Below are positions 5,818-21,208 of a stretch of 47,534 bases of DNA, in pieces. This stretch comes from a virus. Position 1 is the stretch's first letter. Each line of letters opens with the position of its first letter. Both the position numbers and the translations under genes were made by a program. Under the pieces are notes generated by a model. It did no database searches. It was not told where the DNA came from and saw only the letters and a list, made by a program, of their open reading frames with translations. The DNA is taken from IMG/VR virus record IMGVR_UViG_3300024520_000007, positions 1 to 47,534 of that record. The stretch is one strand, 5' to 3'.

Positions 5818-5819
5818 GA

Positions 5820-5948
5820 ATGAAGCTGAGTGAGTTAAAGTTTACCGTGGTGATAGATACTTTTGATGTGTTGTTGGTCTTCCTAACGATAACGGCTACG
5901 GTTTCAGTGGCTTTACTGGTAGCACGTAAAATTCTGGATAAAGGGTAA
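5820..5948 (+). CDS. Small predicted membrane peptide (42 aa)
   Basis: ATG lies 2 nt after the Tal stop; hydrophobic stretch VLLVFLTITATVSVALLVA. Below the ORF-track size cutoff, translated by hand. Confidence 0.3.
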   Translation: MKLSELKFTVVIDTFDVLLVFLTITATVSVALLVARKILDKG

Positions 5949-6028
5949 TGTTAGACGGAATCATATTGGTAGCAATGGCATTCGGCGTAATGGTCACCTT
6001 ACGCTGGTTTATTAATAATATTTACAAA
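5948..6028 (+). CDS. Small predicted membrane peptide (26 aa)
   Basis: taATG overlap with the previous ORF; sequence MLDGIILVAMAFGVMVTLRWFINNIYK. Confidence 0.25.
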
Positions 6029-6049
6029 TAAAGTGGAGAACGATCCAGT

Positions 6050-6253
6050 ATGGAAACCATCGAAAATGTCGAATTCAGTTACGGTGAATTGAAAGAATAT
6101 ATCCTGATTAGGGAAAAGGGTTGGTCAGGGGAAGATATCAACCTATTATTAACAGAAAGTGATTTCAAGGTTTTGAGGGAACGGGCTGAGAAGATGGCGC
6201 ACATTATTCCTGACAGCAACGGCGGTGGGTTCCTGTCACGGTGGTTCGCATGA
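6050..6253 (+). CDS. Hypothetical protein (67 aa)
   Basis: ORF track; ATGA overlap with the next gene. Confidence 0.5.
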   Translation: METIENVEFSYGELKEYILIREKGWSGEDINLLLTESDFKVLRERAEKMAHIIPDSNGGGFLSRWFA

Positions 6254-6612
6254 TTGCATTCCGATACAAAGCCATTCTACGCAGAATTGTGGACGGCGAT
6301 ACCCTGATTTGTGATGTGGACTTGGGGTTCAAAGTCTACACGACTCAAAGGGTACGATTATGGGGAATCAATACACCAGAAACCCGTACCCGCAACTTGG
6401 AGCAAAAGAAGAAGGGATTAGCGGCAAAGGAACGGCTGACAGAAATAATGGAATCGGTGGAAACCTTCTATTTGGAATCGCATGAGGTAGGCAAATATGG
6501 TAGATGTTTGGGATCGCTTTTCCTACAGGAAGATTTCAGTAAATCCATAAATGAACAGTTAGTGGAAGAAGGTCATGCCGTGGAGTACTTCGGGGGAAGG
6601 AGATACCGATAA
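6250..6612 (+). CDS. Staphylococcal (micrococcal) nuclease-like protein
   Basis: Motif VDGDTLICDVD...RVRLWGINTPE is typical of the SNase fold. ATG 6250 overlaps the upstream TGA (ATGA), so it is preferred over the GTG at 6241. Confidence 0.7.
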   Translation: MIAFRYKAILRRIVDGDTLICDVDLGFKVYTTQRVRLWGINTPETRTRNLEQKKKGLAAKERLTEIMESVETFYLESHEVGKYGRCLGSLFLQEDFSKSINEQLVEEGHAVEYFGGRRYR

Positions 6613-6695
6613 TGGAAGCCCTTACAATTTTAGTTGTATTAGTGGTTTGTGTGCTTGGGGGAGTGTTCTTCATCAGGATGGTACAAGGGAAATGA
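6612..6695 (+). CDS. Small predicted membrane peptide (27 aa)
   Basis: taATG overlap upstream and ATGA overlap downstream; sequence MEALTILVVLVVCVLGGVFFIRMVQGK. Confidence 0.3.
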   Translation: MEALTILVVLVVCVLGGVFFIRMVQGK

Positions 6696-6904
6696 AGCAT
6701 GGAGAAAGGCTGAAAACGTTTCGTATCACTTACACCAAATCCACAGAACATATCGTGGAACTGGAAGCATCCTCCGCATCAAAGGCATGGGAAAAAATAA
6801 AATCCAAAACCTACAAAGCCGTCTGGGAACATGAAGGCAACCTAGTTTTTGATGTCAAAACAACAGAAGAAATCACCAAACACATTGCCAGCAACCCAAA
6901 ATAA
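6692..6904 (+). CDS. Hypothetical protein (70 aa)
   Basis: Internal ATG of track ORF 6575..6904, translationally coupled to the upstream peptide. Confidence 0.5.
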   Translation: MKHGERLKTFRITYTKSTEHIVELEASSASKAWEKIKSKTYKAVWEHEGNLVFDVKTTEEITKHIASNPK

Positions 6905-6915
6905 TTGGAGGGAAA

Positions 6916-7113
6916 ATGGCTTTATCATCGAAGCGAAGGCGTAAATTACCTGACAAGGATTTTGCGTTTCGTAAATCACGCAAGTATCCAATCCAAAGTC
7001 TCAAGCAAGCCAAGCTCGCTCTGTCGATGGGCAAGGGGCGTCTGACCGCTTCTGAGTATAAATATCTCAGGGGTCAAGTGACGAAAAGATACCCTAGCTT
7101 AAAATCAAAATAA
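6916..7113 (+). CDS. Small basic protein (65 aa)
   Basis: RBS ttGGAGGGaaaATG; sequence KRRRKLPDKDFAFRKSRKYPI. Confidence 0.5.
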   Translation: MALSSKRRRKLPDKDFAFRKSRKYPIQSLKQAKLALSMGKGRLTASEYKYLRGQVTKRYPSLKSK

Positions 7114-7445
7114 TGGAATCAGAAATAGATTTTGCCCATGAACCAGTTAAGGAAAATCAGCAACCGAACGGCAGACGGCACGAAATCAATCTGCAATTAG
7201 TGAAACTGATCCAGCAGAGAGAAGGCAGAAAGTTTTATCTTAGCATTTTTCTGGTATCTATCCTGTTCGTCATAATCGCCCTGATGATGATTTTTCAAGC
7301 GTTCCAATTGGATATCACGGCTGGCTGGAAAGAAATCTTGTTGGTGCTTGTGGGCGTTTTGTCGGTTAGCCTTAGTAAGCTCATAGATCACTGGTATGCC
7401 AATGATGAACGTGAAAGCGATTTACTTGAAAGCGCACAAGATTGA
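7113..7445 (+). CDS. Membrane protein (110 aa)
   Basis: taATG overlap; two hydrophobic spans (FYLSIFLVSILFVIIALMMIF, ILLVLVGVLSVSL). Confidence 0.55.
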   Translation: MESEIDFAHEPVKENQQPNGRRHEINLQLVKLIQQREGRKFYLSIFLVSILFVIIALMMIFQAFQLDITAGWKEILLVLVGVLSVSLSKLIDHWYANDERESDLLESAQD

Positions 7446-7459
7446 TAACGAGATTCCAG

Positions 7460-7780
7460 ATGGCAAAAAAAATGAACCGCAACCATATCGACGAAGACAG
7501 AGACAGATTGTTTGAGACACTTGATGAAATAAAGAGGGAGATAGCTGTTCTCCAAACAGAGGTCAAACGGGAGATAGCTGTTCTCCAGACAGAGGTTGCC
7601 ACCATCAAAAAAGTTGTGGTAGGTAACGGTCAACCGCCATTAGAGAAACGGCTGTCCTCCCTTGAATCTGAACTGAAGCAAATACAGAGCCAATCAGCCA
7701 AGTCGTGGCAATTCATTGTCGCTATATCGGCGGCGGTCGGCTCCGTGCTACTGACATTTATTTTAAATGTACTGAGGTAA
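7460..7780 (+). CDS. Coiled-coil protein with a C-terminal membrane anchor
   Basis: ATG 7460 (a TTG at 7442 is also possible); internal duplication REIAVLQTEVK x2; C-terminus FIVAISAAVGSVLLTFILNVL. Confidence 0.55.
   Translation: MAKKMNRNHIDEDRDRLFETLDEIKREIAVLQTEVKREIAVLQTEVATIKKVVVGNGQPPLEKRLSSLESELKQIQSQSAKSWQFIVAISAAVGSVLLTFILNVLR
7536..7601. repeat. 33-bp tandem duplication inside the CDS
   Basis: gggagatagctgttctccaaacagaggtcaaac / gggagatagctgttctccagacagaggttgcca. Confidence 0.85.
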
Positions 7781-7782
7781 AA

Positions 7783-7962
7783 ATGAGTTGGACAGATAAA
7801 ATACTTAGAAGCGTGAATACGGACGAAATAGTGAGTGAAGTGGCTGATAAAATCATGGATACCCTTGACCTAGATGAGTTTGTGAAAGGGTTACAGGAAA
7901 AGTTGGTTAGTACACTGATTGACAGGATAACCGCCAACCTAAGTGAAGCCATAAAAAAATGA
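7783..7962 (+). CDS. Hypothetical protein (59 aa)
   Basis: ATG lies 2 nt after the upstream stop, with gaGGtaaaaATG upstream. Confidence 0.45.
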   Translation: MSWTDKILRSVNTDEIVSEVADKIMDTLDLDEFVKGLQEKLVSTLIDRITANLSEAIKK

Positions 7963-7963
7963 G

Positions 7964-8221
7964 ATGCTTGGACTTAAAGACGATCTTAACGAACTGCACC
8001 CACTGGAAAAGGAAGCCCACGATAAAGACCGCAAAAGTGCTATCACGGGAACCCTCGCCGTTACTTCAACAGCGGCAGGGTCAGCCATGATGGAACTGGT
8101 AAATGAAGCACTCCCGTTTGAATATTTTGCTTCGGCTGGAGCAGTCGGGTTCATAGGGTGGGCAATTGTGAAGGTGTTCATGGTTGAAGCGGAAGCTGGA
8201 TTGGAACATTATTTAGAGTAA
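7964..8221 (+). CDS. Hypothetical membrane protein (85 aa)
   Basis: ORF track; hydrophobic segments AVTSTAAGSAMMELV and AGAVGFIGWAIVKVFMV. Confidence 0.5.
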   Translation: MLGLKDDLNELHPLEKEAHDKDRKSAITGTLAVTSTAAGSAMMELVNEALPFEYFASAGAVGFIGWAIVKVFMVEAEAGLEHYLE

Positions 8222-8226
8222 ATGGT

Positions 8227-8255
8227 TTGACACAATTCGCCTTTCGTGATAGGAT
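8227..8255 (+). promoter_or_regulatory. Candidate sigma70 promoter (TTGACA-17-TGaTAGGAT)
   Basis: Consensus -35 at 8227..8232, a 17-nt spacer, an extended -10 TG, and TAGGAT at 8250..8255. Confidence 0.35.
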
Positions 8256-8460
8256 GTTGGGTGTTATCGATTACCTTATCGTTAATTGTAGCTACCTAGC
8301 GTTTTGACCTCGCCGTAATGGTAGCCCTCTAATTTGTATGATCCTTTCCTATACAGGTGGGATGTTAGAAAAAACGGTCAAAATAATTGGTGTCAGCAAA
8401 CGCTAAAAGCCCTTACGGCTTACGAGTGCCTGATCCAGTTCTGATTAGTATTTTTTCCTC

Positions 8461-8505
8461 AGCCCTCGGTTATATTGCTCCTTATCTGATCGGGGGCTTT
8501 TTTAT
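8461..8505 (+). terminator. Candidate intrinsic terminator for rightward transcription
   Basis: AGCCCTCG ... CGGGGGCT stem (one G-U pair) followed by TTTTTTATT. The 22-nt loop makes it weak. Confidence 0.4.
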
Positions 8506-8858
8506 TGGTGACCGAATCTCAGCCTGAGCGTATCCCACCACCCTTTCGGTTGCGTCTGGTCGGTAATCAACTCCAGCTTTTCGTGCATCTGGGCCAGCAG
8601 TATATCCTTCCTGTTTTCCGATTCCTTTAACATTGTTCTCATCTCTGTAAGCTCTGTCCGTAGATACTCATTCTCAGACTGCAACTGGGTTACCAATGTG
8701 TTGTCAACCTGATTGCCAACCGCTCCTTCTCTCACCATCCATTTCCCGTCCACCTGTTCCGCTTCCAGCGTGCCACGTTGGATTCTAGCATACAGCGTTT
8801 GTGTTGATACTCCTTGCTGTCGGGAAAGTTCCTGTACCGAAATGTAGCCGTTTTCCAT
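8502..8858 (-). CDS. HTH (MerR/excisionase-type) DNA-binding regulator with a coiled-coil tail; the only leftward gene
   Basis: YISVQELSRQQGVSTQTLYARIQRGTLEAEQVDGKWMV; AGGAG RBS 6 nt upstream on the - strand; divergent from early promoter P1. Confidence 0.75.
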   Translation of the reverse strand: MENGYISVQELSRQQGVSTQTLYARIQRGTLEAEQVDGKWMVREGAVGNQVDNTLVTQLQSENEYLRTELTEMRTMLKESENRKDILLAQMHEKLELITDQTQPKGWWDTLRLRFGHQ

Positions 8859-8868
8859 CCTAATCTCC

Positions 8869-8912
8869 TAATGGACTTATTGGCTCCTCAGAACCCGTTA
8901 ATAAGTCCATTA
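8869..8912. promoter_or_regulatory. 13-bp perfect inverted repeat (TAATGGACTTATT-N18-AATAAGTCCATTA); operator or 5'-UTR hairpin
   Basis: Read directly; it abuts the RBS of the leftward regulator. Confidence 0.4.
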
Positions 8913-9013
8913 CCAAATCTGTTGCCATTGATATTGACAACGTGGTTGGCTCCGAACGGTTGCAAAAAAAGACGTTTTTTTTGCCTTTCTACCTGTATTT
9001 CTATCATTTTAGC

Positions 9014-9042
9014 TTGCAACATGGGAAGCTAGATGCTATAAT
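9014..9042 (+). promoter_or_regulatory. Early promoter P1 (TTGCAA-17-TGcTATAAT)
   Basis: -35 at 9014..9019, 17-nt spacer, extended -10 TG, TATAAT at 9037..9042. A near-identical block recurs at 12142..12170. Confidence 0.7.
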
Positions 9043-9072
9043 AAGAACATGAAACAACAAAGGAGAGAATCA

Positions 9073-9207
9073 ATGAAACGCATCAGAAACCTCATCATAG
9101 CCCTCATCACCCAGAAGGCTACGGCTCAGCAAGAACGAGACGCCAGAGTACAAGCGTACATCGAACGAATCAGAATCAGCCTACAGCAAAATAAGGGGCG
9201 CAACTAA
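9073..9207 (+). CDS. Small protein (44 aa; 52 aa if started at 9049)
   Basis: aaaGGAGAGAATCAATG start-associated sequence; translated by hand as MKRIRNLIIALITQKATAQQERDARVQAYIERIRISLQQNKGRN. Confidence 0.4.
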   Translation: MKRIRNLIIALITQKATAQQERDARVQAYIERIRISLQQNKGRN

Positions 9208-9208
9208 G

Positions 9209-9406
9209 ATGATATCGAACCCAAGATCAATAACCCTCTACCGCTCATTATGCGGAAAAGAGATTAAGGCCGGAACCTTTTCGGATCTGGTAATTTGGAT
9301 TAACCTCTTAGCTAAAAAATATCAACTGAGCAAGAAGCGTGATGCTCAGATGCACAAACTATACAAGCAAGAATACAGCAGAAACTTCAGCCAGAGACAA
9401 AATTGA
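9209..9406 (+). CDS. Hypothetical protein (65 aa)
   Basis: ORF track; ATG lies 1 nt after the upstream stop. Confidence 0.5.
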   Translation: MISNPRSITLYRSLCGKEIKAGTFSDLVIWINLLAKKYQLSKKRDAQMHKLYKQEYSRNFSQRQN

Positions 9407-9441
9407 CGCAACATACCCAACACTAAAGGAGAAACGCTAAG

Positions 9442-9918
9442 ATGAGTTTAAGCGAGAAACTACACGGCAGAAACCAAGAACTTTACGCCAAGCTGGTAAG
9501 CCCAATGGGAGCCAGCGGTACGGTTGAGGGCGAGATGCTGAGAGCCACCAACAAAATCGGATATCGGTATTACAACGACGGGGATGTGTTCTACGAAGGA
9601 TACGGTGCTGAAACAGCGGGACAGGCACACTCCTTCCTCTCCAATTCTGACGAAATCCCCTTGGAAATCAGAATCAAGCTCCGGCACGAATTCCAGCAAG
9701 CCGAGAACTTTTGCTTGAGGGACGCATACAAAGAAATGCTGGAGAACATTCACCAGATTACGGTTGACTATATCGAGGGCAAAAGTGAAGGGGGATGCAC
9801 TCCATCGGATGTGGATATGCTCGACTTCGAATCCGAATACGAAGATTTCGGAGAGGGGATAGATTGGTATGAAGATGACGACGAGGAATTAGACGAAATC
9901 TGGAACGCAGAAATATAA
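9442..9918 (+). CDS. Hypothetical protein with a very acidic C-terminus (158 aa)
   Basis: RBS AAGGAGAaacgctaagATG; C-terminus DMLDFESEYEDFGEGIDWYEDDDEELDEIWNAEI. Confidence 0.6.
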   Translation: MSLSEKLHGRNQELYAKLVSPMGASGTVEGEMLRATNKIGYRYYNDGDVFYEGYGAETAGQAHSFLSNSDEIPLEIRIKLRHEFQQAENFCLRDAYKEMLENIHQITVDYIEGKSEGGCTPSDVDMLDFESEYEDFGEGIDWYEDDDEELDEIWNAEI

Positions 9919-9991
9919 CGCAGAGCCGCCTATCTTCGGATAGGTGTAATGCGGCTGGCATGGAGCCAACGGTGGCAAGCCCGGACAAAAG
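9916..9991 (+). ncRNA. Twister-like double-pseudoknot RNA, copy A (candidate self-cleaving ribozyme, with extra P3-like hairpin)
   Basis: UAA-CGCA-GAG-CC / hairpin CCTATC-ttcg-GATAGG / U^AA-UGCG-GC / TGGC-atgga-GCCA / CGG-UGGCAAGC-CCG-GACAAAAG. The loop GGC can pair with the 5' GCC, and the loop GC with the GC after UGCG. Confidence 0.55.
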
Positions 9992-10021
9992 AGCCAACAG
10001 CCTTAATCTAAGGAGAAACAA

Positions 10022-10780
10022 ATGTCGAATCTCATGCTTCATTGTGGGGCGCACCTCACAGAAAAGAACGAAGTGCTGGCAACGAAAGCACCAGCACCGA
10101 CCCGTTCACACTTCCCTATCGACCACAGCGTCTTGATAGAGGAAGCGGAAAATCTCATCAGTAAAGTGGGTTACGAAATCACTACCGAAGCTCACGCCCT
10201 CTCCCATGAGGAAATGCGGTACTTTGGACTGTACGAACTCACCAGCAATATCGAGGGAGTAGGTGACTACAACCCAGTGGTAGGTTTACGGAACAGCCAC
10301 GATATGTGCTACGCCGCCGGATTGGTGTGCGGCAAAAGCGTGTTCGTATGTGACAACCTGAGCTTCAGCGGCGACTATAAGTTCAGCCGGAAGCACACAA
10401 AAAACGGTGAGGAAGAAACCCTATCGGGAATGGCTGAAGTTTTTGCTCAGCTACCAGCCTTTGAGGAAAAGTTAAAGGAACGGGTGGACCTATACAAGAA
10501 CACCGAGGTGCCGAGGGATATCAGCAAGTTTATCATCGAATGTGCCAAACGGCGCATCATCGCTCCAAACCAAGTTGTCAACGTGTACGACGAATGGAAC
10601 GAGCCGAAGGACAACTTCGGAGATGAGCCAAGAAACTTGTGGCGGCTGACAAACGCTTTCACTAGCACCATGAAACAAAAGAAGTACAACGTTTTCCGCA
10701 ACGCTCCGGCAACGCTCAAACTGGACGATATCGTAGGAGAACACTTCGGTATCAAGAGCCTGTTGAACGGAGAGGGGTAA
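10022..10780 (+). CDS. DUF932-like protein (phage/ICE-associated family)
   Basis: VVGLRNSHDMCYAAGLVCGKSVFVCDNLSFSG resembles the DUF932 core; RBS AAGGAGAaacaaATG. Confidence 0.7.
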   Translation: MSNLMLHCGAHLTEKNEVLATKAPAPTRSHFPIDHSVLIEEAENLISKVGYEITTEAHALSHEEMRYFGLYELTSNIEGVGDYNPVVGLRNSHDMCYAAGLVCGKSVFVCDNLSFSGDYKFSRKHTKNGEEETLSGMAEVFAQLPAFEEKLKERVDLYKNTEVPRDISKFIIECAKRRIIAPNQVVNVYDEWNEPKDNFGDEPRNLWRLTNAFTSTMKQKKYNVFRNAPATLKLDDIVGEHFGIKSLLNGEG

Positions 10781-10840
10781 CACAAACTTGCTGGCTCGGC
10801 AAGGTTTCCGAGCCAGCATTATCTACAAAGGAGAGAATCG

Positions 10841-11071
10841 ATGAAAAAGAAATCCCCCTTTAAAGCCATAGACGTATTAACGAATCTCACGATCTACATT
10901 CAGACATTGCATCATGCGTGTTCAGAAAAACAAGTCGCACATGAGCGAAAGCATAAGCCCCCCTCCGATAAGTTTTATCGGGAAAGGATAGGATATTTGC
11001 AAGCTCTGGAAGACATACAAATGCAGATCACACGCATAGAAACAGAAAAGGAAAAAGGAGAGAATCAATGA
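10841..11071 (+). CDS. Hypothetical protein (76 aa)
   Basis: Start-associated sequence aaaGGAGAGAATCGATG. Confidence 0.55.
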   Translation: MKKKSPFKAIDVLTNLTIYIQTLHHACSEKQVAHERKHKPPSDKFYRERIGYLQALEDIQMQITRIETEKEKGENQ

Positions 11072-11673
11072 AGGGTACGGTTTGGAGATTGGGAGCATTG
11101 ATGCACCAGTATTCCCGGCTTAACGGGGATTGCGAAGATGTTCTTTTGTTTGAGACAGAAGCGAAAATGGAAAGATACATCAAAAAGATCATGTGCGATT
11201 TTGACCAGCTTGTTAAAGATGGGGTTTGTTCTTCCCTTGAGGAACCTTCGTTTCGCAAAAGAAAGATCAGTTTTGATTCTAAAGAAGATTTGTGTTTTTC
11301 CCTTTCCCTAATGCGTCAGTCTTACTACATGGAACAGGAAAGCGAAGATGAATGCGGTGAGATGGAATATCACGAGCCGGAATCTGTGGATGGCGAACAT
11401 TCGTATTACCAGTTTATGGTACAGGAATACAGGAACAGAAAGGAGAGGGAGATATCCAAACTCCAAAAGGAGCAAACGCTTGCTGAGGAAACCCTTACCC
11501 TCTCCCATAAGGAACTCTACATGAAACTGGTGAAAAAGTTTCACCCTGATAAAGCGAACAGGAAAAATCAGGTTGACAGGTTCACACGCATCACCAAGGA
11601 AGTCAACCGCTATAACGACCTACAGGCAACATCAAAGTTACGGGAAATCTACATACAGGAGATGATAAGATGA
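11068..11673 (+). CDS. J-domain (DnaJ-like) protein
   Basis: C-terminal LYMKLVKKFHPDKANRKNQVDRFTRITKEVNRYNDL carries the HPD tripeptide; start-associated sequence; ATGA overlap upstream. Confidence 0.7.
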   Translation: MKGTVWRLGALMHQYSRLNGDCEDVLLFETEAKMERYIKKIMCDFDQLVKDGVCSSLEEPSFRKRKISFDSKEDLCFSLSLMRQSYYMEQESEDECGEMEYHEPESVDGEHSYYQFMVQEYRNRKEREISKLQKEQTLAEETLTLSHKELYMKLVKKFHPDKANRKNQVDRFTRITKEVNRYNDLQATSKLREIYIQEMIR

Positions 11674-11993
11674 ATAAGCAACTCAGGAAATCTATTGTAA
11701 CTCAAGGATCTTCTTACAGCGAAACGGCACAACGTATCCAGAACCGTCAGGAAGTTGACAATCTGGCTCGGAGCATTTGTAGTTTCACCAGCCATTTAAA
11801 AGACGTACAGGAAGATTTCTGTGTGGAGCTTTGCCAGCAACACCGCACACACCAGCAATCGGTGATGCGTTTGTTCATGCGGTTTGTAGACAAGCTGGCT
11901 GAAAATCCTACCGATATGAGGAACGAAGCGGCTGTGGAACTGGCACAGAAAATCAAAGAACAATTCCCCGATCCTTATCTACCCTATATATAG
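11670..11993 (+). CDS. Hypothetical protein (107 aa)
   Basis: ATGA overlap with the upstream gene; GGAGA RBS. Confidence 0.55.
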   Translation: MNKQLRKSIVTQGSSYSETAQRIQNRQEVDNLARSICSFTSHLKDVQEDFCVELCQQHRTHQQSVMRLFMRFVDKLAENPTDMRNEAAVELAQKIKEQFPDPYLPYI

Positions 11994-12141
11994 CACGGGT
12001 TAAGGTGGGTTGACACAAAACCCCAAATCCGGGGGTTTGAATTATCTAGGGATACGGAAGTTACGGCTGAGCCGGAGCGGGAAAAGGCGTGAATAAAACG
12101 TCTTTTTTTGCGTTTTATCCCTGTTTTCTTATCAATCTAGC

Positions 12142-12170
12142 TTGCAATATAGAAACCTAGATGCTATAAT
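12142..12170 (+). promoter_or_regulatory. Early promoter P2 (TTGCAA-17-TGcTATAAT), paralog of P1
   Basis: -35 at 12142..12147, TATAAT at 12165..12170. About 105 nt (12103..12206) are near-identical to 8974..9080. Confidence 0.7.
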
Positions 12171-12200
12171 AAGGGTATGAAACAACAAAGGAGAGAATCA

Positions 12201-12575
12201 ATGAAACGGAACACAACAAAAAAATTCGACGCTAAAACTGGGATGCGGCTGACAACCTGTTGTGCCGCACACAGCACATACATGGATGACGGAATCGGAG
12301 GAATGGATTTGTGCTGTAAGGCTTGCTACTACGAAGTCGAAGTTGGAGAAGGGGATGGCAACGAATACAAAAAAAGAGAAATCACCAAGAATGAATTAAT
12401 GCAAGAAATCGTTGATCTTTTTGCCCAACATTCCTATCAGGCAACGCCAAACTTGGTCAGGGCATACGCCAAAAGAATGATGAGCATCTACCGGGAATAT
12501 GACCTCTGTGGAGAAGAAATCTTCAAGCAGATAGAAACCAGATACACAATAACAATCTTCGGAAACGGATCATAA
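12201..12575 (+). CDS. Cys-rich hypothetical protein (124 aa)
   Basis: Start-associated sequence; N-terminal TTCCAAHSTYMDDGIGGMDLCCKACYYE suggests metal binding. Confidence 0.6.
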   Translation: MKRNTTKKFDAKTGMRLTTCCAAHSTYMDDGIGGMDLCCKACYYEVEVGEGDGNEYKKREITKNELMQEIVDLFAQHSYQATPNLVRAYAKRMMSIYREYDLCGEEIFKQIETRYTITIFGNGS

Positions 12576-12642
12576 ACGCAGAGTCACCCACCCAAATGGG
12601 TGGGGTAATGCGACCGAATGGCGGTGGCAAGTCCGCAAGGAA
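12573..12642 (+). ncRNA. Twister-like double-pseudoknot RNA, copy B
   Basis: UAAA-CGCA-GAG-UC / CCCACCC-aaat-GGGTGGG / U^AA-UGCG-AC-CGAAUG / GCGG-UGGCAAGU-CCGC. Loop GGC pairs with GUC (one G-U); loop GU pairs with AC. Confidence 0.55.
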
Positions 12643-12672
12643 TCAACACAATATCGTATGGAGAGAATCAAA

Positions 12673-13002
12673 ATGAAGACGAAACAATTTCAAGAAGCAA
12701 ATCAGAGAGCGTGGGACAAGTTTCACTCTGAAAACGGACATATTATTCGGAAGCGCAAGTATGGGAAGAACACTCTTTTGGGATATCCCAAAGTTGAGCT
12801 TTGGGATTGGCTTGACAACCTTCTGGAATCTGGGGTAACGAAAGCCGAAATGTGTGATGCTCCTCATTTGATGGAACGAGAATTCGGACTATCCTTTCAA
12901 AAAGCGGAAAGAGTTTGGGATTCATGGTATAGAGAAGCGTCACGCATACAATCTAACGCATACTACAAAATCTTCCGTAGAAAATCTTCTTCATGCCTTT
13001 AA
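12673..13002 (+). CDS. Hypothetical protein, paralog of 13110..13310
   Basis: SD-led ATG at 12673, preferred over 12658. ELWDWLDNLLESGVT...LMEREFGLSFQKAERVWDSW aligns with the next gene. Confidence 0.6.
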   Translation: MKTKQFQEANQRAWDKFHSENGHIIRKRKYGKNTLLGYPKVELWDWLDNLLESGVTKAEMCDAPHLMEREFGLSFQKAERVWDSWYREASRIQSNAYYKIFRRKSSSCL

Positions 13003-13077
13003 ACGCAGAGTCACCCACCCAAATGGGTGGGCGTAATGCGGCTGGCATGGAGCCAACGGTGACAAGCCCGGACAAAG
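13000..13077 (+). ncRNA. Twister-like double-pseudoknot RNA, copy C (with P3-like hairpin)
   Basis: Same 5' half as copy B and same 3' half as copy A. The loop is UGACAAGC, so GAC pairs with the 5' GUC by Watson-Crick pairing (a compensatory change). Confidence 0.55.
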
Positions 13078-13109
13078 AGCATTTAATCCTAACCAAAGGA
13101 GAGAATCAA

Positions 13110-13310
13110 ATGAGTGCAAAACGCAAGCATGGCACGAGGGGTTTTACCCAAGCCGAGCTTTTCAGATTCCTTGATAACCTCAGAGAATCAGGGGCGATCA
13201 ATATGTACGGTGCGCCACGAGTGATGGAACAACAAATGGGGCTGTCCTCAAAAGAAGCCAAAGAAGTGTGGGTAGCATGGACAGAAACTTTTCAAGGAGA
13301 GAATCGATGA
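13110..13310 (+). CDS. Hypothetical protein (66 aa), paralog of 12673..13002
   Basis: Start-associated sequence aaaGGAGAGAATCAAATG; ELFRFLDNLRESGAINMYGAPRVMEQQMGLSSKEAKEVWVAW. Confidence 0.6.
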   Translation: MSAKRKHGTRGFTQAELFRFLDNLRESGAINMYGAPRVMEQQMGLSSKEAKEVWVAWTETFQGENR

Positions 13311-13597
13311 ATCTTAAACCAAGCACGAAATTCTACACAGTCCATCCAGCGTGGCGTATGGACGCTGGCTCAGGAATGTCAGCATCAGTACCCGAAGGCA
13401 TCCGAGAATTTGACCATTTCCCACCAAGCGAAGATGGAATATGTGGGGTGAAATGGATTAATGAAAAACCGAATTTCACACTAATCGGGATCAAGAAAAA
13501 AGCTGACGGAACCTTAAAACGCTACGACAGGCTTTTCCCCATTTTCAATCGAAACGGGGATGTTCCTACACGCAAAGAAGCCGAGGGGAATCAATAA
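13307..13597 (+). CDS. Hypothetical protein (96 aa)
   Basis: Start-associated sequence caaGGAGAGAATCGATG; ATGA overlap with the upstream stop. Confidence 0.55.
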   Translation: MNLKPSTKFYTVHPAWRMDAGSGMSASVPEGIREFDHFPPSEDGICGVKWINEKPNFTLIGIKKKADGTLKRYDRLFPIFNRNGDVPTRKEAEGNQ

Positions 13598-13665
13598 CGC
13601 AGAGCCACCCACCTCTCCGGGGGTGGGGTAATGCGACCGATTGGCGGTGGCAAGTCCGCAAGGAA
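13595..13665 (+). ncRNA. Twister-like double-pseudoknot RNA, copy D
   Basis: UAA-CGCA-GAG-CC / CCCACC...GGTGGG hairpin / U^AA-UGCG-AC-CGAUUG / GCGG-UGGCAAGU-CCGC. Confidence 0.55.
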
Positions 13666-13692
13666 AACCAATATCGTATGGAGAGAATCAAA

Positions 13693-13974
13693 ATGACTTA
13701 CGAAGCAATCGTAAAAAAGAGCATTGATATGTCACACGCTTACTTCAAGCAGTGTCCTTGCACTGAAGAATCCATCAGGGATTACGCATATCGAATGAGC
13801 TTTTTCTGGAAGCTGGAAATCGACAGACTCGAAAGGCCCGTGCATATTGGAGAAGGGCTTTACCGTTATCCAAAGACGGGTCTGGATTCCCTAATGGTTG
13901 AGGAGCTTTATCATAGCCTGATGCACGAAATTGACGCAACCCACCCAACAATAAAGTGGAACGCAGAAATATAA
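13693..13974 (+). CDS. Hypothetical protein (93 aa)
   Basis: SD-led ATG at 13693. It ends WNAEI, like 9442..9918, because the last 17 coding nt are shared. Confidence 0.55.
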   Translation: MTYEAIVKKSIDMSHAYFKQCPCTEESIRDYAYRMSFFWKLEIDRLERPVHIGEGLYRYPKTGLDSLMVEELYHSLMHEIDATHPTIKWNAEI

Positions 13975-14042
13975 CGCAGAGCCACCCACCTCTCCGGGGG
14001 TGGGGTAATGCGACCGATTGGCGGTGGCAAGTCCGTAAGGAA
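13972..14042 (+). ncRNA. Twister-like double-pseudoknot RNA, copy E
   Basis: As copy D, but the loop-closing stem is GCGG/CCGU (a G-U pair). Confidence 0.55.
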
Positions 14043-14070
14043 AAACCAATATCGTATGGAGAGAATCAAA

Positions 14071-14559
14071 ATGCCAGAATTGTATACAACTCCGAGCGTG
14101 GCTGATGTAGCCATGCGTAATCACATGAGGGGTGATGACATGAAGTCTGATTGGCAGGGACAGGTCGATCAATCACACCCAAACGATTTGACTGGTCAAA
14201 TGAAGATACAACAGCCAGTTACAAATAACCAAAGGGGAGAATCAACGATGACATACAGCCAAGCTAAAGAACTGATAAACATGATGGGGCGTGACCACCT
14301 CGTTGAACTTCTCGGCTGGATGGAAGAAGATGCACTTGTTGCCGCACTGGATTTGGGGCTGGCATGGAACATCCATGACGATTTCCAATATGAGGGAGAA
14401 CACAGTAACGATGAGGAGTTTGTCCAAGAAATGTTGGACGGAACAGGTGACATCCCTCACGATTTACCAGCCTATATCCACATAGATTGGACTGCCACAG
14501 CCCGTGACATAATGATGGATTACAGCGAATCGGGGGGGCATTATTTCCGTAGTGTTTAG
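14071..14559 (+). CDS. ArdA-like antirestriction candidate, with a second in-frame start-associated sequence at 14248
   Basis: C-terminal half EEFVQEMLDGTGDIPHDLPAYIHIDWTATARDIMMDYSESGGHYFRSV resembles the ArdA C-terminal motif (from memory). The sequence is acidic. Confidence 0.5.
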   Translation: MPELYTTPSVADVAMRNHMRGDDMKSDWQGQVDQSHPNDLTGQMKIQQPVTNNQRGESTMTYSQAKELINMMGRDHLVELLGWMEEDALVAALDLGLAWNIHDDFQYEGEHSNDEEFVQEMLDGTGDIPHDLPAYIHIDWTATARDIMMDYSESGGHYFRSV

Positions 14560-14560
14560 C

Positions 14561-14590
14561 TTGCCGCTCAGTGACCTAATATGCTATAAT
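14561..14590 (+). promoter_or_regulatory. Early/middle promoter P3 (TTGCCG-18-TGcTATAAT)
   Basis: It shares tagcttgc...atgctataataag with P1 and P2. Confidence 0.6.
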
Positions 14591-14671
14591 AAGGTAAGGG
14601 GAGCAATGACGAGTTGCTCCCCTTAGTAAACCAAAAATCCGGTTTTCACCGGAAACCAAAAGGAGTCTACC

Positions 14672-14815
14672 ATGACTGCCATAATAGTTTCAAGAGATTA
14701 TCCTTTCTCCATCCGCAACCGTAGAATGCTGGAGAAAGTTCACATGGGGCTGGTTCGCCGGAACCTCACTAGGATCTTAATCATCGTTGCTGTAACGGCA
14801 ATGATATTACTCTAA
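14672..14815 (+). CDS. Small membrane protein (47 aa)
   Basis: RBS aaAGGAGtctaccATG; C-terminus ILIIVAVTAMILL; translated by hand. Confidence 0.35.
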   Translation: MTAIIVSRDYPFSIRNRRMLEKVHMGLVRRNLTRILIIVAVTAMILL

Positions 14816-14832
14816 TATCGTATGGAGCCAAA

Positions 14833-15537
14833 ATGCCAGAGAAAAATCAAACGCCGGATTCGGGATCTGTAAAGATCAAAGGGAATCCTTACACCAAAGT
14901 TTGGAAACGGCGGGATGAGTTTCTCCTTGATATCGGGTTCAAAGCCCTTATCAATGAGAAGGAACTGACTTCACTAAAGCGTGAGACGACCATCGTGGAA
15001 GAAAATGACGAGTTTCTTCATATGCTATGTACCCTGTCAGTCCAATTCGGAGACCTCGACTTCAACGTTGAGGGTAACGCCCGAAATTGGAAAACCCATA
15101 CCAAAGAAGATGCCAAGCTGATAGAGAAATGTGAAAGTATCGCTTTCGGTCGAGCCTTGTCTGTATTGGGTTACGGGGGTGAAATGGCTACGGCTGAGGA
15201 AATGCAATCCATCGATGAAGATGGTAAACAGATTGAGAAAAACCACGCCATGAAGAAAGCTAAGGAAGCTGAGGAAGTCAAGAAACAGCAACAGCAGGGT
15301 TTTGAAGACAGAGAATCAGCCGTGAGTTTCGGCACGAAAGGGGAAATCACGAACGCCAAAAATAAATTGTTGGGCTTGGGTATGTCAGCCAAAGCAATAA
15401 GCAAGCTCTACACAGAGGAGTTTGGTGAGAGAAAAAGTGACACTTTGAATACTGAGGAGCTTAAGAAATTCCTTAGCAATCTGAAATCCAGTGTAGAGGT
15501 GCTGGCGAAAACCGAAACCACAGAACAGGTTTCGTAG
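14833..15537 (+). CDS. Candidate single-strand annealing protein (Rad52/Sak-like)
   Basis: KGNPYTKVW ... KCESIAFGRALSVLGYGGE resembles the conserved end of Rad52-superfamily SSAP cores. The tail is Lys/Glu-rich. The match is weak. Confidence 0.4.
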   Translation: MPEKNQTPDSGSVKIKGNPYTKVWKRRDEFLLDIGFKALINEKELTSLKRETTIVEENDEFLHMLCTLSVQFGDLDFNVEGNARNWKTHTKEDAKLIEKCESIAFGRALSVLGYGGEMATAEEMQSIDEDGKQIEKNHAMKKAKEAEEVKKQQQQGFEDRESAVSFGTKGEITNAKNKLLGLGMSAKAISKLYTEEFGERKSDTLNTEELKKFLSNLKSSVEVLAKTETTEQVS

Positions 15538-15774
15538 TAGTTTAAACTTATGGTGGGAGTTCGGCATTTTGTTAATACAAAACTAGAAATGACGACTTTG
15601 GTTTGGCAAGACGGACAGATAACCAAAGCGATCAATCTCGACCTTGACCAACTATCTCGGCTGTTGTTGCCACGAGTAGAAGCGGGATAGTAGCAACATA
15701 GAAACTATCCATACAAGGGAGAGTCGTGAAGTAAAGCCATGTGCCAACTCCCACCTACCTTAAGGAGAGAATCA

Positions 15775-15951
15775 ATGAAAAAGAAAAAAACTGTTAGTGC
15801 TGAGGAGTTTGAGTTTTTTAAGGACAGGGTTAGAGCCTTGGAACTGGGCCACAAGGCAATGATATATATCCTGATACAGATGTTGTCGGGAAAGAAGATT
15901 GACCCGGAACTGATAAAAAGGGCTGAGGAAGCCGTCCGAGATTTAGGTTGA
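15775..15951 (+). CDS. Hypothetical protein (58 aa)
   Basis: Start-associated sequence ttaaGGAGAGAATCAATG. Confidence 0.5.
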   Translation: MKKKKTVSAEEFEFFKDRVRALELGHKAMIYILIQMLSGKKIDPELIKRAEEAVRDLG

Positions 15952-15974
15952 CTTTTAAGAAGCAAAAGGGTAAG

Positions 15975-16430
15975 ATGATGTTTATGCCAAAAAACTATTT
16001 ATCCGCAACTGAAGCGGCAAAGAAATACGGTTGCTCAAGTTCGGCAATTCGGAGCTTTGTCAGGCAGGGGGTCTTACATTGGGACGAACTTGCCCTGACT
16101 GAGTTTGGAGTGCGCCGAATCACTAAGAAGGACTTTGATAATTTTGTAGGGAGCCGGAGCGACTTGATAGAATCCCGACGAGCCAACGCCTACGCTGGTA
16201 TGCCGGAGGGATATTTGACAATCAACCAGTTCTCACAAAAATACCACATCAGTCCTGCCAAGCTGATGCAAGCCGTTAATGGTAATGTTCTGGAGCATCG
16301 GGTTTCCGACCGAGGGTGGAAACTTTTACCAGAGGGGGAAACGTGTCAAAAACTGAAAGTGGGAGAGTATGCCAACGGGACTGAAATCAATCAGGGAGAT
16401 AACTTACAGAAAGATAAAACCACTGGCTGA
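15975..16430 (+). CDS. DNA-binding protein with two excisionase-type HTH repeats
   Basis: YLSATEAAKKYGCSSSAIRSFVRQGVL and YLTINQFSQKYHISPAKLMQAVNGNVL. The start is uncertain (TTG 15948 or ATG 15975). Confidence 0.6.
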   Translation: MMFMPKNYLSATEAAKKYGCSSSAIRSFVRQGVLHWDELALTEFGVRRITKKDFDNFVGSRSDLIESRRANAYAGMPEGYLTINQFSQKYHISPAKLMQAVNGNVLEHRVSDRGWKLLPEGETCQKLKVGEYANGTEINQGDNLQKDKTTG

Positions 16431-16719
16431 GGAACTTGGGATTTCTCGTAGACGGCTGGAGCGGTTCGTCAGGGGTGAACTGGATCAGCTTGACCTTACC
16501 CTGCGGGAACATCAAGCCCTATCCAACCATCCCGTTTTTCAAGGGACGATGGAAGGGTTGTGTCCTGATGTTTCACAGCCGCCAAGCATGGCAAGTAATG
16601 AACCAACAGAGAAACCGTCTTTTGAAGTTAAGCTAAAAGTGGAGTTGACCAATGGGGCAGTCCACCTTAAAACAGATAAAGGAGAAGTGGAAGAATCGCT
16701 CCAACTTGATCTATTGTAA
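16369..16719 (+). CDS. HTH protein (116 aa)
   Basis: LAEELGISRRRLERFVRG; it overlaps the upstream gene by 62 nt, so the start is uncertain. Confidence 0.45.
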   Translation: MPTGLKSIREITYRKIKPLAEELGISRRRLERFVRGELDQLDLTLREHQALSNHPVFQGTMEGLCPDVSQPPSMASNEPTEKPSFEVKLKVELTNGAVHLKTDKGEVEESLQLDLL

Positions 16720-16736
16720 CAACTGAATAAAAAAGT

Positions 16737-16765
16737 TTACTTTTTCCAAATAAGATAATATAATA
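16737..16765 (+). promoter_or_regulatory. Candidate promoter (TTTACT-17-TATAAT) in the AT-rich noncoding block
   Basis: -35 at 16737..16742, 17-nt spacer, perfect TATAAT at 16760..16765. Confidence 0.4.
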
Positions 16766-17037
16766 GAAATAGGAAATGGGTGAAGGATACAAAATCCCCC
16801 ACCCATAATATCGTACAGAGGAACAACAGGTTGCCAGACTTGCCGCTCTCTTTTTATCAAACAACAAATTCCCAAAAAGGGACGGGGATTTCCGTTTGAT
16901 GCCCTTATTGTACCACAAAAGCAAACTTGCCGTCAAAAAAATAATACTTTTTCGGGGAAAGTTCCACAAAGGAAAACTAGCGTTCCCCTTCCGTGACATT
17001 TTAAAATCAATTTCTAGACGCAAAAAAGGCATCCGAG

Positions 17038-17080
17038 AGACTGCTACGAAACTCGGATGCCCTTTTTATTGTCAATTTTC
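17038..17080 (+). terminator. Intrinsic terminator
   Basis: Perfect 10-bp stem GGCATCCGAG/CTCGGATGCC followed by CTTTTTATT. An upstream A6 run makes it potentially bidirectional. Confidence 0.8.
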
Positions 17081-17151
17081 ATCGGAGAGAATCGAATTGA
17101 CCGCTCTCTGTTACCCAATCACCCATAATCAAATAACAAGGAGAAACTTTA

Positions 17152-18468
17152 ATGTCTGCCATACAGCGTAGCATAGAAGTGAGCCGTAGTCAAGAAAAAC
17201 CTTCCGAATCCCGTCAGGTGAAAAATCGATCTCCGTACACCGAGTTCGATTTACAGAAAGCCAAGAAACGATTGTGCGATCAGTACGAGGTTCCCAAGCT
17301 GGGGTATTACCGATCCATTATCGAACTGTTAATGAATCGGCTGAACGGACAGTTCCGAAAATACGTCAACATGAAGCCGCAATTGTGCTACGGAGAAACC
17401 GTTCCCATTACCGACAGGTGCGTAGCCGAACAGGTAGGATGCTCAGAGAAGATCGTTGGCGATTGCCGGAGGTTTTGTAAACGCTCAGGATTGTTGAATG
17501 TGATACGGGCAACGGGCAAGCATGGAAACGGTCGATGCGGGGTGTGGATATACGCTTTTGTCGGATACATGAATCTGCTACCAGAACAGCCGGGGGAAGT
17601 CATGTTTGAGGAAGATGAAGACAAGGTTTTAATAGTCGATTTCGAGGGGGAAAATCCGTCTCTTTGCTCGGAAGAAAAAGTTCCGTCTACTCGGAAAAAA
17701 AGTTCCGTCTACTCGGAACTTTCTCAGCTTGTCGAAACCTGTTTCAACCCAGACAGTGACAGGGTTTCATCCGGGTCGGGAATTTCAGCTACTAAAACAA
17801 GCTTACAAAAACAATATTACTCTTCTTCTATAGAGGGAGAAGAAGACAAATTTAACAAGGAAAAACACCCTCATTCCAGAGATCGAAACGAGCCAGTTTT
17901 ACAGGTGGATTCAGACTTGGAAAAAACATTGGTTAAGCTGAGCGAAATACGTCAAGATTCTGATGGGAATGCCAACCCTATCGACGAAGCTGAGAAACCA
18001 CAGTTTCGTGTCTGGCTGGACACCTATGCACAAAGACGTATGAAAGACTTAAGCATCTCTTACCAAGAAGCCCTCGAAATATTGCCAGTGGCGTGGGGGC
18101 TGGCAAACCGTGCCAGCCTTAATTACCGACCCGACACCCCGTGCTATTTCGCCAATGGGCGGTCAAATACATATGCCAAACCGTTATTATACGATGCCTT
18201 AAAAACAATACAATCCGGCGGGGAGCCGGAACAGGAGCCGAAGATGGATCTTGACCCAATTCTTTCACAGGGAGATGAAACCGAATCCGTTGTCAATTCA
18301 GAGGAACAGGAATTACGGATGTATATCAGTAAATACAGCACCCTTTTGAAAGCCAGAGAAGCGAATAACGGCTCAGCCTTGTCACGGTTGATGCGTACTC
18401 CTTTGGCTAAGAAACTTGGTGAGGAGACAGCAAGGCGGCTGTTGATAATTGAGGGGATCTGTGGATAA
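17152..18468 (+). CDS. Replication-initiator-like DNA-binding protein (438 aa)
   Basis: RBS AAGGAGAaactttaATG; winged-helix-like ITDRCVAEQVGCSEKIVGDCRRFCKRSGLL; tandem iterons inside the gene; it follows an AT-rich noncoding block. Confidence 0.45.
   Translation: MSAIQRSIEVSRSQEKPSESRQVKNRSPYTEFDLQKAKKRLCDQYEVPKLGYYRSIIELLMNRLNGQFRKYVNMKPQLCYGETVPITDRCVAEQVGCSEKIVGDCRRFCKRSGLLNVIRATGKHGNGRCGVWIYAFVGYMNLLPEQPGEVMFEEDEDKVLIVDFEGENPSLCSEEKVPSTRKKSSVYSELSQLVETCFNPDSDRVSSGSGISATKTSLQKQYYSSSIEGEEDKFNKEKHPHSRDRNEPVLQVDSDLEKTLVKLSEIRQDSDGNANPIDEAEKPQFRVWLDTYAQRRMKDLSISYQEALEILPVAWGLANRASLNYRPDTPCYFANGRSNTYAKPLLYDALKTIQSGGEPEQEPKMDLDPILSQGDETESVVNSEEQELRMYISKYSTLLKAREANNGSALSRLMRTPLAKKLGEETARRLLIIEGICG
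17675..17718. repeat. Two perfect tandem 22-bp repeats (candidate origin iterons)
   Basis: aaaaagttccgtctactcggaa x2, with a degenerate copy ccgtctctttgctcggaa at 17656..17673. Confidence 0.6.
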
Positions 18469-18742
18469 AGAAGACCTGATAGAAGCGATGAAAGATGGTG
18501 CCAACTTTCATACTAAACTTATTGGGGAACGGGAGGTGATCTGTTTTCGGTGCAAGGGATATGAAATCGTTACCGATTACAACAGCGACCATGAAGCCTA
18601 CGAGTCGGTGGTTGTCAAGATGGGTGACAGTACCGTTTTGCATTCGGTGATGAGCGATTTCCATCGGAGAGCCTTAAGTCTGGCTGTCGAGTGGTTGGGT
18701 AAAGAGCTTGATCCACAACTTAGCTTCTTAGAGGAATCGTAA
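18461..18742 (+). CDS. Hypothetical protein
   Basis: GTG 18461 after GAGGGG (TTG 18449 is also possible); it overlaps the end of the upstream gene. Confidence 0.45.
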   Translation: MDKEDLIEAMKDGANFHTKLIGEREVICFRCKGYEIVTDYNSDHEAYESVVVKMGDSTVLHSVMSDFHRRALSLAVEWLGKELDPQLSFLEES

Positions 18743-18746
18743 CAAA

Positions 18747-19238
18747 ATGGCACAGGTAGAACTAACGTATCAGGAAATGGTGTTGGGTTGCACGGTGGGG
18801 CTTACCCGGCACACGGAGAGCGTAGCCAAAAGAAGGACACCTCACTTTCCTGAGAAGTTCCCAGACCAGATGTTGTTGTCTCATCAACTGGGAGCCTGTG
18901 CGGAACTGGCGTTCTGTAAACTGGTGGACAGGTTTTATTCTCCCACCGTAAACACCTTTAAGGCTCCTGATATTGGTGATGATATCGAAGTTAGGTGGAG
19001 CAATAACGGACGCTTGAAAGTTCGACCTGATGACGTAAATGTTTACTGTGTAGCCATGAGCGGCAACTTGCCACGATTTGTGTATCACGGCTGGATGTGG
19101 TCTGAGGATGCTAAACGGGATGAATGGAAAGCTGACCCAAACGGATGGGGGAAACCAGCTTATTTTGTGCCTAACGACCAGTTGCGGCGAGGAAAAATCA
19201 AGCGGGAAGGTAAACAGGTTGCCAGTGTTAAGGGATAA
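18747..19238 (+). CDS. Hypothetical protein, possibly with a PD-(D/E)xK nuclease fold
   Basis: GACAELAF ... PDIGDDIEVRW resembles an E...D...ExK/R arrangement; weak. Confidence 0.4.
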   Translation: MAQVELTYQEMVLGCTVGLTRHTESVAKRRTPHFPEKFPDQMLLSHQLGACAELAFCKLVDRFYSPTVNTFKAPDIGDDIEVRWSNNGRLKVRPDDVNVYCVAMSGNLPRFVYHGWMWSEDAKRDEWKADPNGWGKPAYFVPNDQLRRGKIKREGKQVASVKG

Positions 19239-19878: not shown

Positions 19879-20151
19879 CTTGTACTAAAGATTAAATGTT
19901 TAAAACATTCAAAGTAAAATACAAGCAGAATCAAGCTATCACTAAGGCGTGTTGTACTTAAGCCTAGAGTAAAATATATGTACAAAAGTCTTAACTTAAA
20001 TACAAGGAGACATTTGATTTGCCCTCCGACAGAACTACAGCAAACCTTCTAGGGATGGAAAGGTTTGTGGGGCAAACACGGGACGCTTAATTTAAAGACT
20101 GAAATCTTATAAAGGGGAAGCGTCCCGTTTAAACTTATGATAGGAGATGGC

Positions 20152-21206: not shown

Positions 21207-21208
21207 GG

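Follow-up and report, generated by a model that had tools for sequence, protein, structure and literature searches.

What are the five short elements that recur between early genes of a tailed phage, and what might they do to the transcripts that contain them? The question is raised by a viral DNA of 47,534 nucleotides (positions 1 to 47,534 of IMG/VR record IMGVR_UViG_3300024520_000007; hereafter, the window), in which a preliminary description, made from the letters alone, had pointed out five copies of an intercistronic RNA with two pseudoknots and had likened them to the twister self-cleaving ribozyme. The sequence and matches to the twister core pattern confirmed the positions and the plus-strand orientation of all five elements, which lie on the strand of the genes at spacings of 377-2658 nt:

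9919..9984, plus strand: predicted twister A, type P5, P3 hairpin at 9956-9968; predicted cleavage U9947/A9948; begins 0 nt after the TAA of gene 9442-9918
12577..12636, plus strand: predicted twister B, type P5, no P3; predicted cleavage U12606/A12607; RF02684 E-value 1.7e-8; begins 1 nt after the TAA of gene 12201-12575
13004..13071, plus strand: predicted twister C, type P5, P3 hairpin at 13043-13055; predicted cleavage U13034/A13035
13598..13659, plus strand: predicted twister D, type P5, no P3; predicted cleavage U13629/A13630; begins 0 nt after the TAA of gene 13307-13597
13975..14036, plus strand: predicted twister E, type P5, no P3; predicted cleavage U14006/A14007; begins 0 nt after the TAA of gene 13693-13974

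Identity of the five elements

The whole 47.5-kb window was scanned against all 4227 Rfam families at gathering thresholds and then with permissive filters. At gathering thresholds, RF02684 (Twister-P5) was the sole family found, with copies B, D and E scoring 53.7, 46.3 and 43.6 bits, respectively, against a gathering score of 37.6 and aligning to positions 1-58 of the 58 in the model. With permissive filters, copies C (36.6 bits; E-value 4e-5 in 5 kb) and A (31.9 bits; E-value 7e-4) were also recovered over the full model, and a covariance model of our own, R2, which had been built with copy A included, scored A at 57.5 bits. The comparison with Rfam by Infernal thus bore out the twister identification along the full length of RF02684, with three elements above the gathering score and two below it. 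No other Rfam family was found in the whole window at an E-value of 1 or below under permissive filters, and no extra or decayed twister copy was detected, either with permissive filters in the whole window or with the filters off in 5800-23000; a 15-bit match at 15048-15104, inside a coding region, was judged to be due to chance. In addition, a strict core pattern (CGCAGAGYC..TAATGCGRC..CGGTGRCAAGYCCG), composed of P2′-GAG-T2, U^AA-P2-T1 and P4/L4, matched five times in the window, where none was expected, and in none of 100 dinucleotide-preserving shuffles of the same window.

Alignments of the five copies showed helices P1, P2 and P4 in the circularly permuted order that places both chain ends where P5 would be. 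The hairpins noticed earlier (CCTATC/GATAGG in A, CCCACCC/GGGTGGG in B and C, CCCACC/GGTGGG in D and E) are present as claimed and constitute P1, the complementary CGCA and UGCG are the strands of P2, and the additional hairpin of A and C (TGGC-atgga-GCCA) occupies the P3 position, between T1 and P4. Each of the five scissile bonds that had been proposed is a U-A step aligned to the UAA junction of the model. All unpaired consensus nucleotides (GAG, U-A-A and the U..CAAG of loop L4), including the A on the 3′ side of the scissile bond, are invariant in the five copies, and departures from the Rfam consensus are confined to the T1 and T2 pairs, where all of them are compensated. The loop triplet that had been seen to change together with the GAG-YC block (GCC:GGC in A, D and E; GUC:GAC in C; GUC:GGC in B) is one side of pseudoknot T2, in which G-Y-C faces G-R-C of L4 as CC:GG, UC:GA or UC:GG. 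Likewise, the loop dinucleotide that varies with the two nucleotides after UGCG (GC:GC in A and C; AC:GU in B, D and E) belongs to pseudoknot T1. Judged by their sequences and alignments, the five elements are almost certainly twister ribozymes, and we assign them to type P5 in two predicted architectures, three copies without P3 (B, D and E) and two with P3 (A and C).

Covariation, pseudoknots and the P5 helix

Relatives were type-P5 twisters from viral contigs, retrieved with two DNA patterns and confirmed with covariance models built first from B, D and E and then from 16 hits. Only model-confirmed hits were used; raw pattern matches are mostly chance, and of the first 39 hits in IMG/VR, only about 12 proved genuine. 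In a set of 22 sequences, five of them from the window, 99.5% of the cells were paired, double changes occurred in 12 of 19 pairs, and none of 500 shuffles did as well. An independent set of 63 further sequences gave 96.9% paired cells and double changes in 14 of 19 pairs, again with no equal among 500 shuffles. Upon sliding the register, pairing fell to 24-42% in both sets. The individual helices were paired at 97-100% (22 sequences) and 96-99% (63 sequences), with double changes in P1 and P4, counts that lean toward structure because the nested helices belonged to the alignment model.

The pseudoknots were absent from the alignment models, and their covariation is therefore independent evidence. 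Among the 22 sequences, T2 was paired throughout, with double changes in all three of its pairs, while T1 showed double changes in one pair, with G-C replaced by A-U in six sequences. In the 63-sequence set, T2 was 91% paired with four to five pair types (middle pair UA in 33, GC in 11, CG in 6 and AU in 2 sequences); T1 is uninformative in this set because the search pattern fixed it. With homologs added in this way, compensatory changes were thus seen in both pseudoknots that the preliminary description had proposed, for T2 in both sets and for T1 among the 22 sequences. That description erred on P4, where its supposed compensatory change (GCGG/CCGC versus CCGU) is a one-sided G-C to G-U replacement in copy E; true double changes in P4 appeared only after other loci had been added. 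At the P3 position, other phage twisters hold different, self-complementary inserts. Within one five-copy array (contig L020), the T2 pair differs in every copy, and each is compensated within itself. A rule by which neighboring copies avoid or require compatible T2 strands was considered and rejected, as results were mixed across arrays.

The preliminary description had cautioned that the flanks do not pair to form P5. Duplex energies confirmed this point: for the five copies, the 14-nt flanks paired no better than shuffled sequences (mean z 0.07), and only copy C has a plausible short flank pairing (z -2.9). In the twister class, P1, P2 and P4 are essential and P0, P3 and P5 optional, the types being set by the position of the chain ends (PMC5408937), and the Rfam type-P5 model comprises three helices and no P5 pairs. 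The missing P5 is therefore no argument against membership.

Cassettes and early operons

The copies share their surroundings as well as their fold. In all five, the TAA of the preceding gene and the first nucleotide of P2′ are separated by 0-1 nt, on the same strand; counted from P4′, the Shine-Dalgarno sequence follows 20-25 nt and the start codon 33-38 nt on. An abutting stop codon had been noted before and stands at 0-1 nt, whereas the distance of 20-40 nt then given from the end of the element to the ribosome-binding site (RBS) does not, since we measured 14-20 nt. The intervening leaders are:

9985..10021, plus strand: leader and RBS (AAGGAG) of DUF932 gene 10022-10780, downstream of ribozyme A
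12637..12672, plus strand: leader (..AATATCGTAT) and RBS GGAGAGAATC of gene 12673-13002, downstream of ribozyme B
13072-13109 (C), 13660-13692 (D) and 14037-14070 (E), plus strand: equivalent leaders

The conserved RBS occurs 11 times on the plus strand within 9062-17084. At 14813-14835, immediately past the stop codon of a 47-codon open reading frame (ORF) and ahead of an ATG at 14833, the leader that B, D and E have in common (AATATCGTATGGAG) occurs once more, but with no ribozyme, as though the twister of this cassette had been lost or had never been present.

The same succession of stop codon, ribozyme, leader and RBS was also present in unrelated phage contigs. Type-P5 twisters are common in IMG/VR contigs, often in same-strand arrays of six (L186, 2681-5405, 2.7 kb), five (L235 and L020, the latter at 4585-7244), four (L200) or three copies (L198 and L025), with spacings mostly of 370-670 nt, about one small gene. 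For 82 type-P5 twisters, the upstream sequence was long enough to look for an ORF of 40 or more codons that stops 0-2 nt ahead of the ribozyme; 39 of them (48%) have one, as compared to 2.1% of random positions in the same loci, and a Shine-Dalgarno sequence with a start codon (ORF of at least 35 codons) follows 61 of 85 twisters, at a median of 31 nt past P4′. A relative of the window phage (L016; 70-92% nucleotide identity, collinear with window 3975-18718) has kept a twister ahead of its DUF932 gene, but one of the variant seen in B, D and E. A convincing twister was also seen in a Bdellovibrionales metagenome-assembled genome (CAYHNK010000093.1; L058, 2512-2570), 0 nt after a TAG stop codon and followed by an RBS. 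A scan of GTDB with the core pattern, aimed at the host, was set aside, as about 1000 chance matches were expected; among 80 fetched loci, only the Bdellovibrionales one held a convincing twister, and no host is therefore proposed.

Promoter and terminator signals bound two operons around the ribozymes:

9014..9042, plus strand: early promoter-like site TTGCAA-17-TATAAT (extended -10), heading operon 1
9073-11993, plus strand: genes of operon 1, with ribozyme A between gene 9442-9918 and DUF932 gene 10022-10780
12142..12170, plus strand: early promoter-like site TTGCAA-17-TATAAT, heading operon 2, with hairpin 12077-12111 upstream
12201..14559, plus strand: operon 2, six small genes (12201-12575, 12673-13002, 13110-13310, 13307-13597, 13693-13974 and 14071/14248-14559)
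9010-9080, 12138-12208 and 14558-14590 (third site 14561-14590), plus strand: stretches of the promoter cassettes

The three promoter-like cassettes are near-identical (TTGCAA or TTGCCG, 17-18 nt, TGnTATAAT; TAGCTTGCAA/TTGCCG - N17-18 - TGCTATAAT), the first two at 90% over 71 nt, through RBS and ATG. Terminator-like hairpins with a T run (8966-8990 and 12077-12111) each precede a promoter cassette. Position, strand and promoters thus place all five ribozymes within polycistronic early transcripts. Operon 2 has a twister (B, C, D and E) in each of its four non-overlapping junctions and none in its single overlapping junction. The promoter modules have been duplicated in the same manner as the ribozyme cassettes.

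Pfam searches of the flanked genes returned only DUF932, a weak DnaJ match and, for the last gene of operon 2, directly after E, a sub-threshold ArdA match (E-value 6e-5); PHROGs, NCBIfam and a PDB sequence search returned nothing on their functions, and apart from the DUF932 and ArdA-like genes, the flanked genes belong to no recognizable family. Homologs of the gene after E mostly carry PF07275, and one of them is named ArdA (58% identity, E-value 2e-20), so that, by homology, this gene is assigned to the ArdA antirestriction family. It contains a second in-frame RBS (GGGGAGAATC) and ATG at 14234-14250 (internal start 14248), and 14071-14559 may thus encode two nested products or include a mis-fused upstream ORF; in L016, each part is a gene of its own, and a twister lies between the two. 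Public gene calls for the contig of the window (window 12993-13310 and 14008-14559; L162 4050-4337 and 5035-5586) start inside ribozymes C and E and give ORFs of 95 and 183 aa, while the starts preceded by an RBS are 13110 and 14071 or 14248. Unannotated ribozymes thus cause genes to be mis-called, as public callers extend false ORFs through them. The DUF932 protein, used as a query for relatives, retrieved only two distant loci. Operon 1 has a single long spacer that lacks a ribozyme, the one separating gene 10841 from the DUF932 gene; it is taken up by an 11-bp GC-rich hairpin (10789-10818, GCTGGCTCGG..CCGAGCCAGC), which may be another processing or stabilizing element.

The remainder of the window is that of a tailed phage, with genes for a large terminase, portal, SU10-type major capsid, head morphogenesis, tape measure and tail proteins, all on the plus strand. 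The sequence is deposited as contig k141_3365862 of ENA assembly ERZ27250004. The window had no nucleotide match among isolated phages, and its large terminase is at most 37% identical to that of any of them. A ParB-N-terminal/N6-N4 DNA methylase fusion (window 23074-24834) lies upstream of the terminase, and a 966-aa fusion of glycosyltransferase-1, methyltransferase and glycosyltransferase-2 (window 34788-37688) lies inside the structural module.

Proposed function and comparison with known systems

The best overall explanation, and quite probably the right one, is that functional type-P5 twisters process the two early operons; we also lean, with less assurance, towards intercistronic processing as their main role. 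The five twisters would be transcribed within two sigma-70-type early operons of the phage, and each would fold as soon as its P4 has been synthesized and cut the U^A bond that separates P1 from P2. Of the two products, the upstream mRNA would keep its stop codon and end about 30 nt later in the GC-rich P1 hairpin (predicted energy -11 to -17 kcal/mol) with a 2′,3′-cyclic phosphate. The downstream mRNA would carry a 5′-OH, the remnant of P2, T1, (P3) and P4, an approximately 20-nt leader and then a strong Shine-Dalgarno sequence. Such ends have the chemistry of the twister class (PMC5408937). The operons would be resolved into one- or two-gene mRNAs with uniform, structured ends, the stability and translation of neighboring early genes, including the ArdA and DUF932 genes, would be uncoupled, and the cassette would serve as a natural ribozyme insulator.

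We infer from the sequence that the RNAs would be cleaved in vivo, with effects on RNA stability and translation. Cutting of the early polycistronic RNA, as envisaged in the preliminary description, would match both the anatomy of the operons and earlier proposals. The further suggestion there, that single-gene units result, does not hold throughout, as not all products would be monocistronic: genes 13110-13310 and 13307-13597 overlap and would therefore remain on one RNA. In operon 1, copy A separates a three-gene block from a four-gene block.

Several observations weigh against this explanation. Copies C and A miss the gathering score of RF02684 by 1-6 bits, with all core positions aligned; we attribute the shortfall to their P3 hairpin insertion (9 nt plus), which the model handles as an insert. 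In B, D and E, the base of P1 beside the cleavage site is an A-G mismatch or a bulge. Nested-fold predictions of RBS unmasking upon cleavage were inconsistent between copies and thus do not support a gain in translation. The effect of a 5′-OH end depends on host RNases, and RNase J1 degrades the 5′-OH product of glmS, as cited in PMC6765202. The abutment to stop codons may reflect genome economy rather than mechanism. Finally, the homologous region of L016 has only two ribozymes and a gene order rearranged around them, so that the ribozymes are dispensable at individual junctions.

The arrangement in L016 also bears on a different explanation, which we consider improbable, namely that the cassettes of about 100 nt (stop codon, ribozyme, leader and RBS) are mainly recombination modules, which provide stretches of homology for shuffling, duplicating and deleting early genes, the ribozyme being a passenger or selfish element of minor importance for expression. 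Conservation indeed spans the whole spacer, beyond the ribozyme: between stop and start codon, cassettes D and E agree at 98% of 103 nt, and B and D are 95% identical from P1 to the start codon. Copy C is a chimera, with a B-like 5′ half (12573-12612 versus 13000-13040, 97.6%) and an A-like 3′ half (9946-9989 versus 13033-13076, 97.7%). The genes that flank C (12673-13002 and 13110-13310) are paralogs (44% identity over 59 aa, E-value 4e-13), which suggests that a gene was duplicated along with the cassette. A stretch of 27 identical nucleotides (9901-9927 and 13957-13983) takes in the starts of A and E and, ahead of them, the final five codons (WNAEI, stop) of the two upstream genes, which are otherwise unrelated; it holds a direct repeat of AACGCAGA, which amounts to a second copy of the P2′ strand 15 nt upstream, and may be a scar left by recombination or else offer a decoy strand. 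In L016, the same genes stand in another order, with breakpoints at the cassettes. The chimeric copy, the paralogs around it, the 27-nt identity, the near-identity of D and E, and L016 with its two ribozymes all speak for such modules. However, patches of homology would not require that a catalytic core be conserved. Here the core nucleotides do not vary, and every change in T1, T2, P1 and P4 across unrelated phages is a compensated one. Moreover, the sole difference between C and A in the 3′ half is a G-to-A change in L4, which turns the G-U pair of T2 into a Watson-Crick U-A pair. Invariant core and compensated changes therefore point to selection on the fold itself, with recombination more likely a side effect.

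The stop codons suggest another role, and one we find no easier to credit. A terminating ribosome would unwind P2′, GAG and T2, so that cleavage would occur only upon poor upstream translation or be timed by translation, which would make the element a conditional switch coupled to translation and not a site of constitutive processing. Such coupling agrees with the frequent stop-codon abutment (48% of 82 twisters as compared to 2.1%, and all five copies in the window) and with the asymmetric spacing, which leaves no spacer on the 5′ side but about 20 nt ahead of the RBS. However, simple compaction of the genome would lead to abutment just as well, roughly one in two type-P5 members does not adjoin a stop codon, and no alternative structure or ligand pocket was found in these RNAs. 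In addition, twisters are fast constitutive cleavers in vitro, at about 2 per minute for crystallized constructs (PMC5408937).

Processing by functional ribozymes must also be weighed against the notion that the elements are inactive relics, which act only as stable RNA structures, such as 3′ stabilizers or pause/termination signals. The sub-threshold scores of A and C and the imperfect P1 base of B, D and E would fit this notion, and many predicted ribozymes fail on testing (noted in PMC8782182). We nevertheless hold it to be very unlikely, as all conserved unpaired nucleotides are kept in the five copies, the pseudoknots, needed only for the catalytic fold, are upheld by compensatory change, and a stabilizer hairpin would need no GAG, UAA or CAAG.

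Last, pairs of ribozymes could excise gene-length RNAs whose halves re-pair through P2 and T2 and are ligated, by the ribozyme or by host RtcB, into circular mRNAs; P2 is common to all copies, the T2 strands are fully compatible in three of the four neighboring pairs of the window, and ends with 5′-OH and 2′,3′-cyclic phosphate suit RtcB, the principle of the engineered Tornado system. If true, circularization would yield early mRNAs that resist exonucleases and can be translated, so that bacteria would have a natural parallel to the circular RNA systems engineered with twisters. This is hardly to be expected, since neighboring T2 strands are mostly incompatible in L020, no ligase gene was seen among the window proteins scanned, and a search for circular or spliced products of clustered phage hammerheads came up empty (PMC3088659).

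We therefore return to the processing of two early operons by functional twisters and compare it with known systems. It offers a natural test case, in that two short promoter-to-terminator operons contain five ribozymes of two architectures and ArdA/DUF932 cargo, with a relative that has fewer copies at hand. It also provides testable design rules, the ribozyme starting at the stop codon and the start codon lying about 31 nt after P4′, and the cassettes could serve as compact insulator parts. Such quantified rules for stop-codon and RBS spacing were not found stated in the literature searched, which excluded Roth 2014, Weinberg 2015 and Felletti 2017.

The twister class itself was reportedly described by Roth et al. 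in 2014. The window copies follow the order of RF02684 (P2′ - GAG - T2 - P1 hairpin - U^AA - P2 - T1 - (P3) - P4, with U..CAAG in L4) and share its conserved nucleotides and both pseudoknots. They differ from it in T2, which is YC:GR as opposed to the consensus gG:Cc, and in T1, which is AC:GU in three copies, both differences being compensated; in addition, they lack a P5 helix, their 5′ flank being coding sequence and a stop codon.

Felletti, Bieber and Hartig (2017) are said to have studied twisters in 3′ untranslated regions (UTRs), where the structure left at the new 3′ end reportedly influences expression; their motifs were reportedly single ones from bacterial chromosomes or prophages, tested in reporters. 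The window twisters likewise lie downstream of coding regions, but form an array in the early anti-defense operon of a phage. RiboJ is an engineered hammerhead insulator placed after a promoter, in which ribozyme, hairpin and leader before the RBS standardize the 5′ end. It resembles the cassettes in that a self-cleaving ribozyme is followed by a leader before the RBS, and differs in that the window twisters sit between natural cistrons. The glmS ribozyme is likewise a bacterial self-cleaving ribozyme in an mRNA, the 5′-OH product of which sets the fate of the message; however, it needs a metabolite cofactor, sits in the 5′ UTR and destabilizes the mRNA, whereas no ligand dependence is evident in the window.

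Bacterial twisters have been proposed to process polycistronic mRNA (Felletti, Bieber and Hartig 2017, via PMC6765202), and ribozymes of the twister and hammerhead classes are known to occur close to phage genes and to one another (PMC4604425, PMC6765202), while what self-cleaving ribozymes do for bacteria and phages is still described as largely elusive (PMC6765202). The closest parallel was described by Perreault et al. (2011), who found multiple hammerheads flanking single genes or short blocks in prophages, one of them directly upstream of ardA, showed cleavage in vitro and in E. coli, and proposed the processing of mRNAs to gene length (PMC3088659). The window also has several same-strand ribozymes around single genes or short blocks, one of them before an ArdA-family gene; it differs in the ribozyme class, twister in place of hammerhead, and in its five copies, which fill every non-overlapping junction of one operon. 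The locus is thus the twister counterpart of a phage arrangement already described and not a new kind of RNA. As such, it would not surprise a specialist and presents a compact test system.

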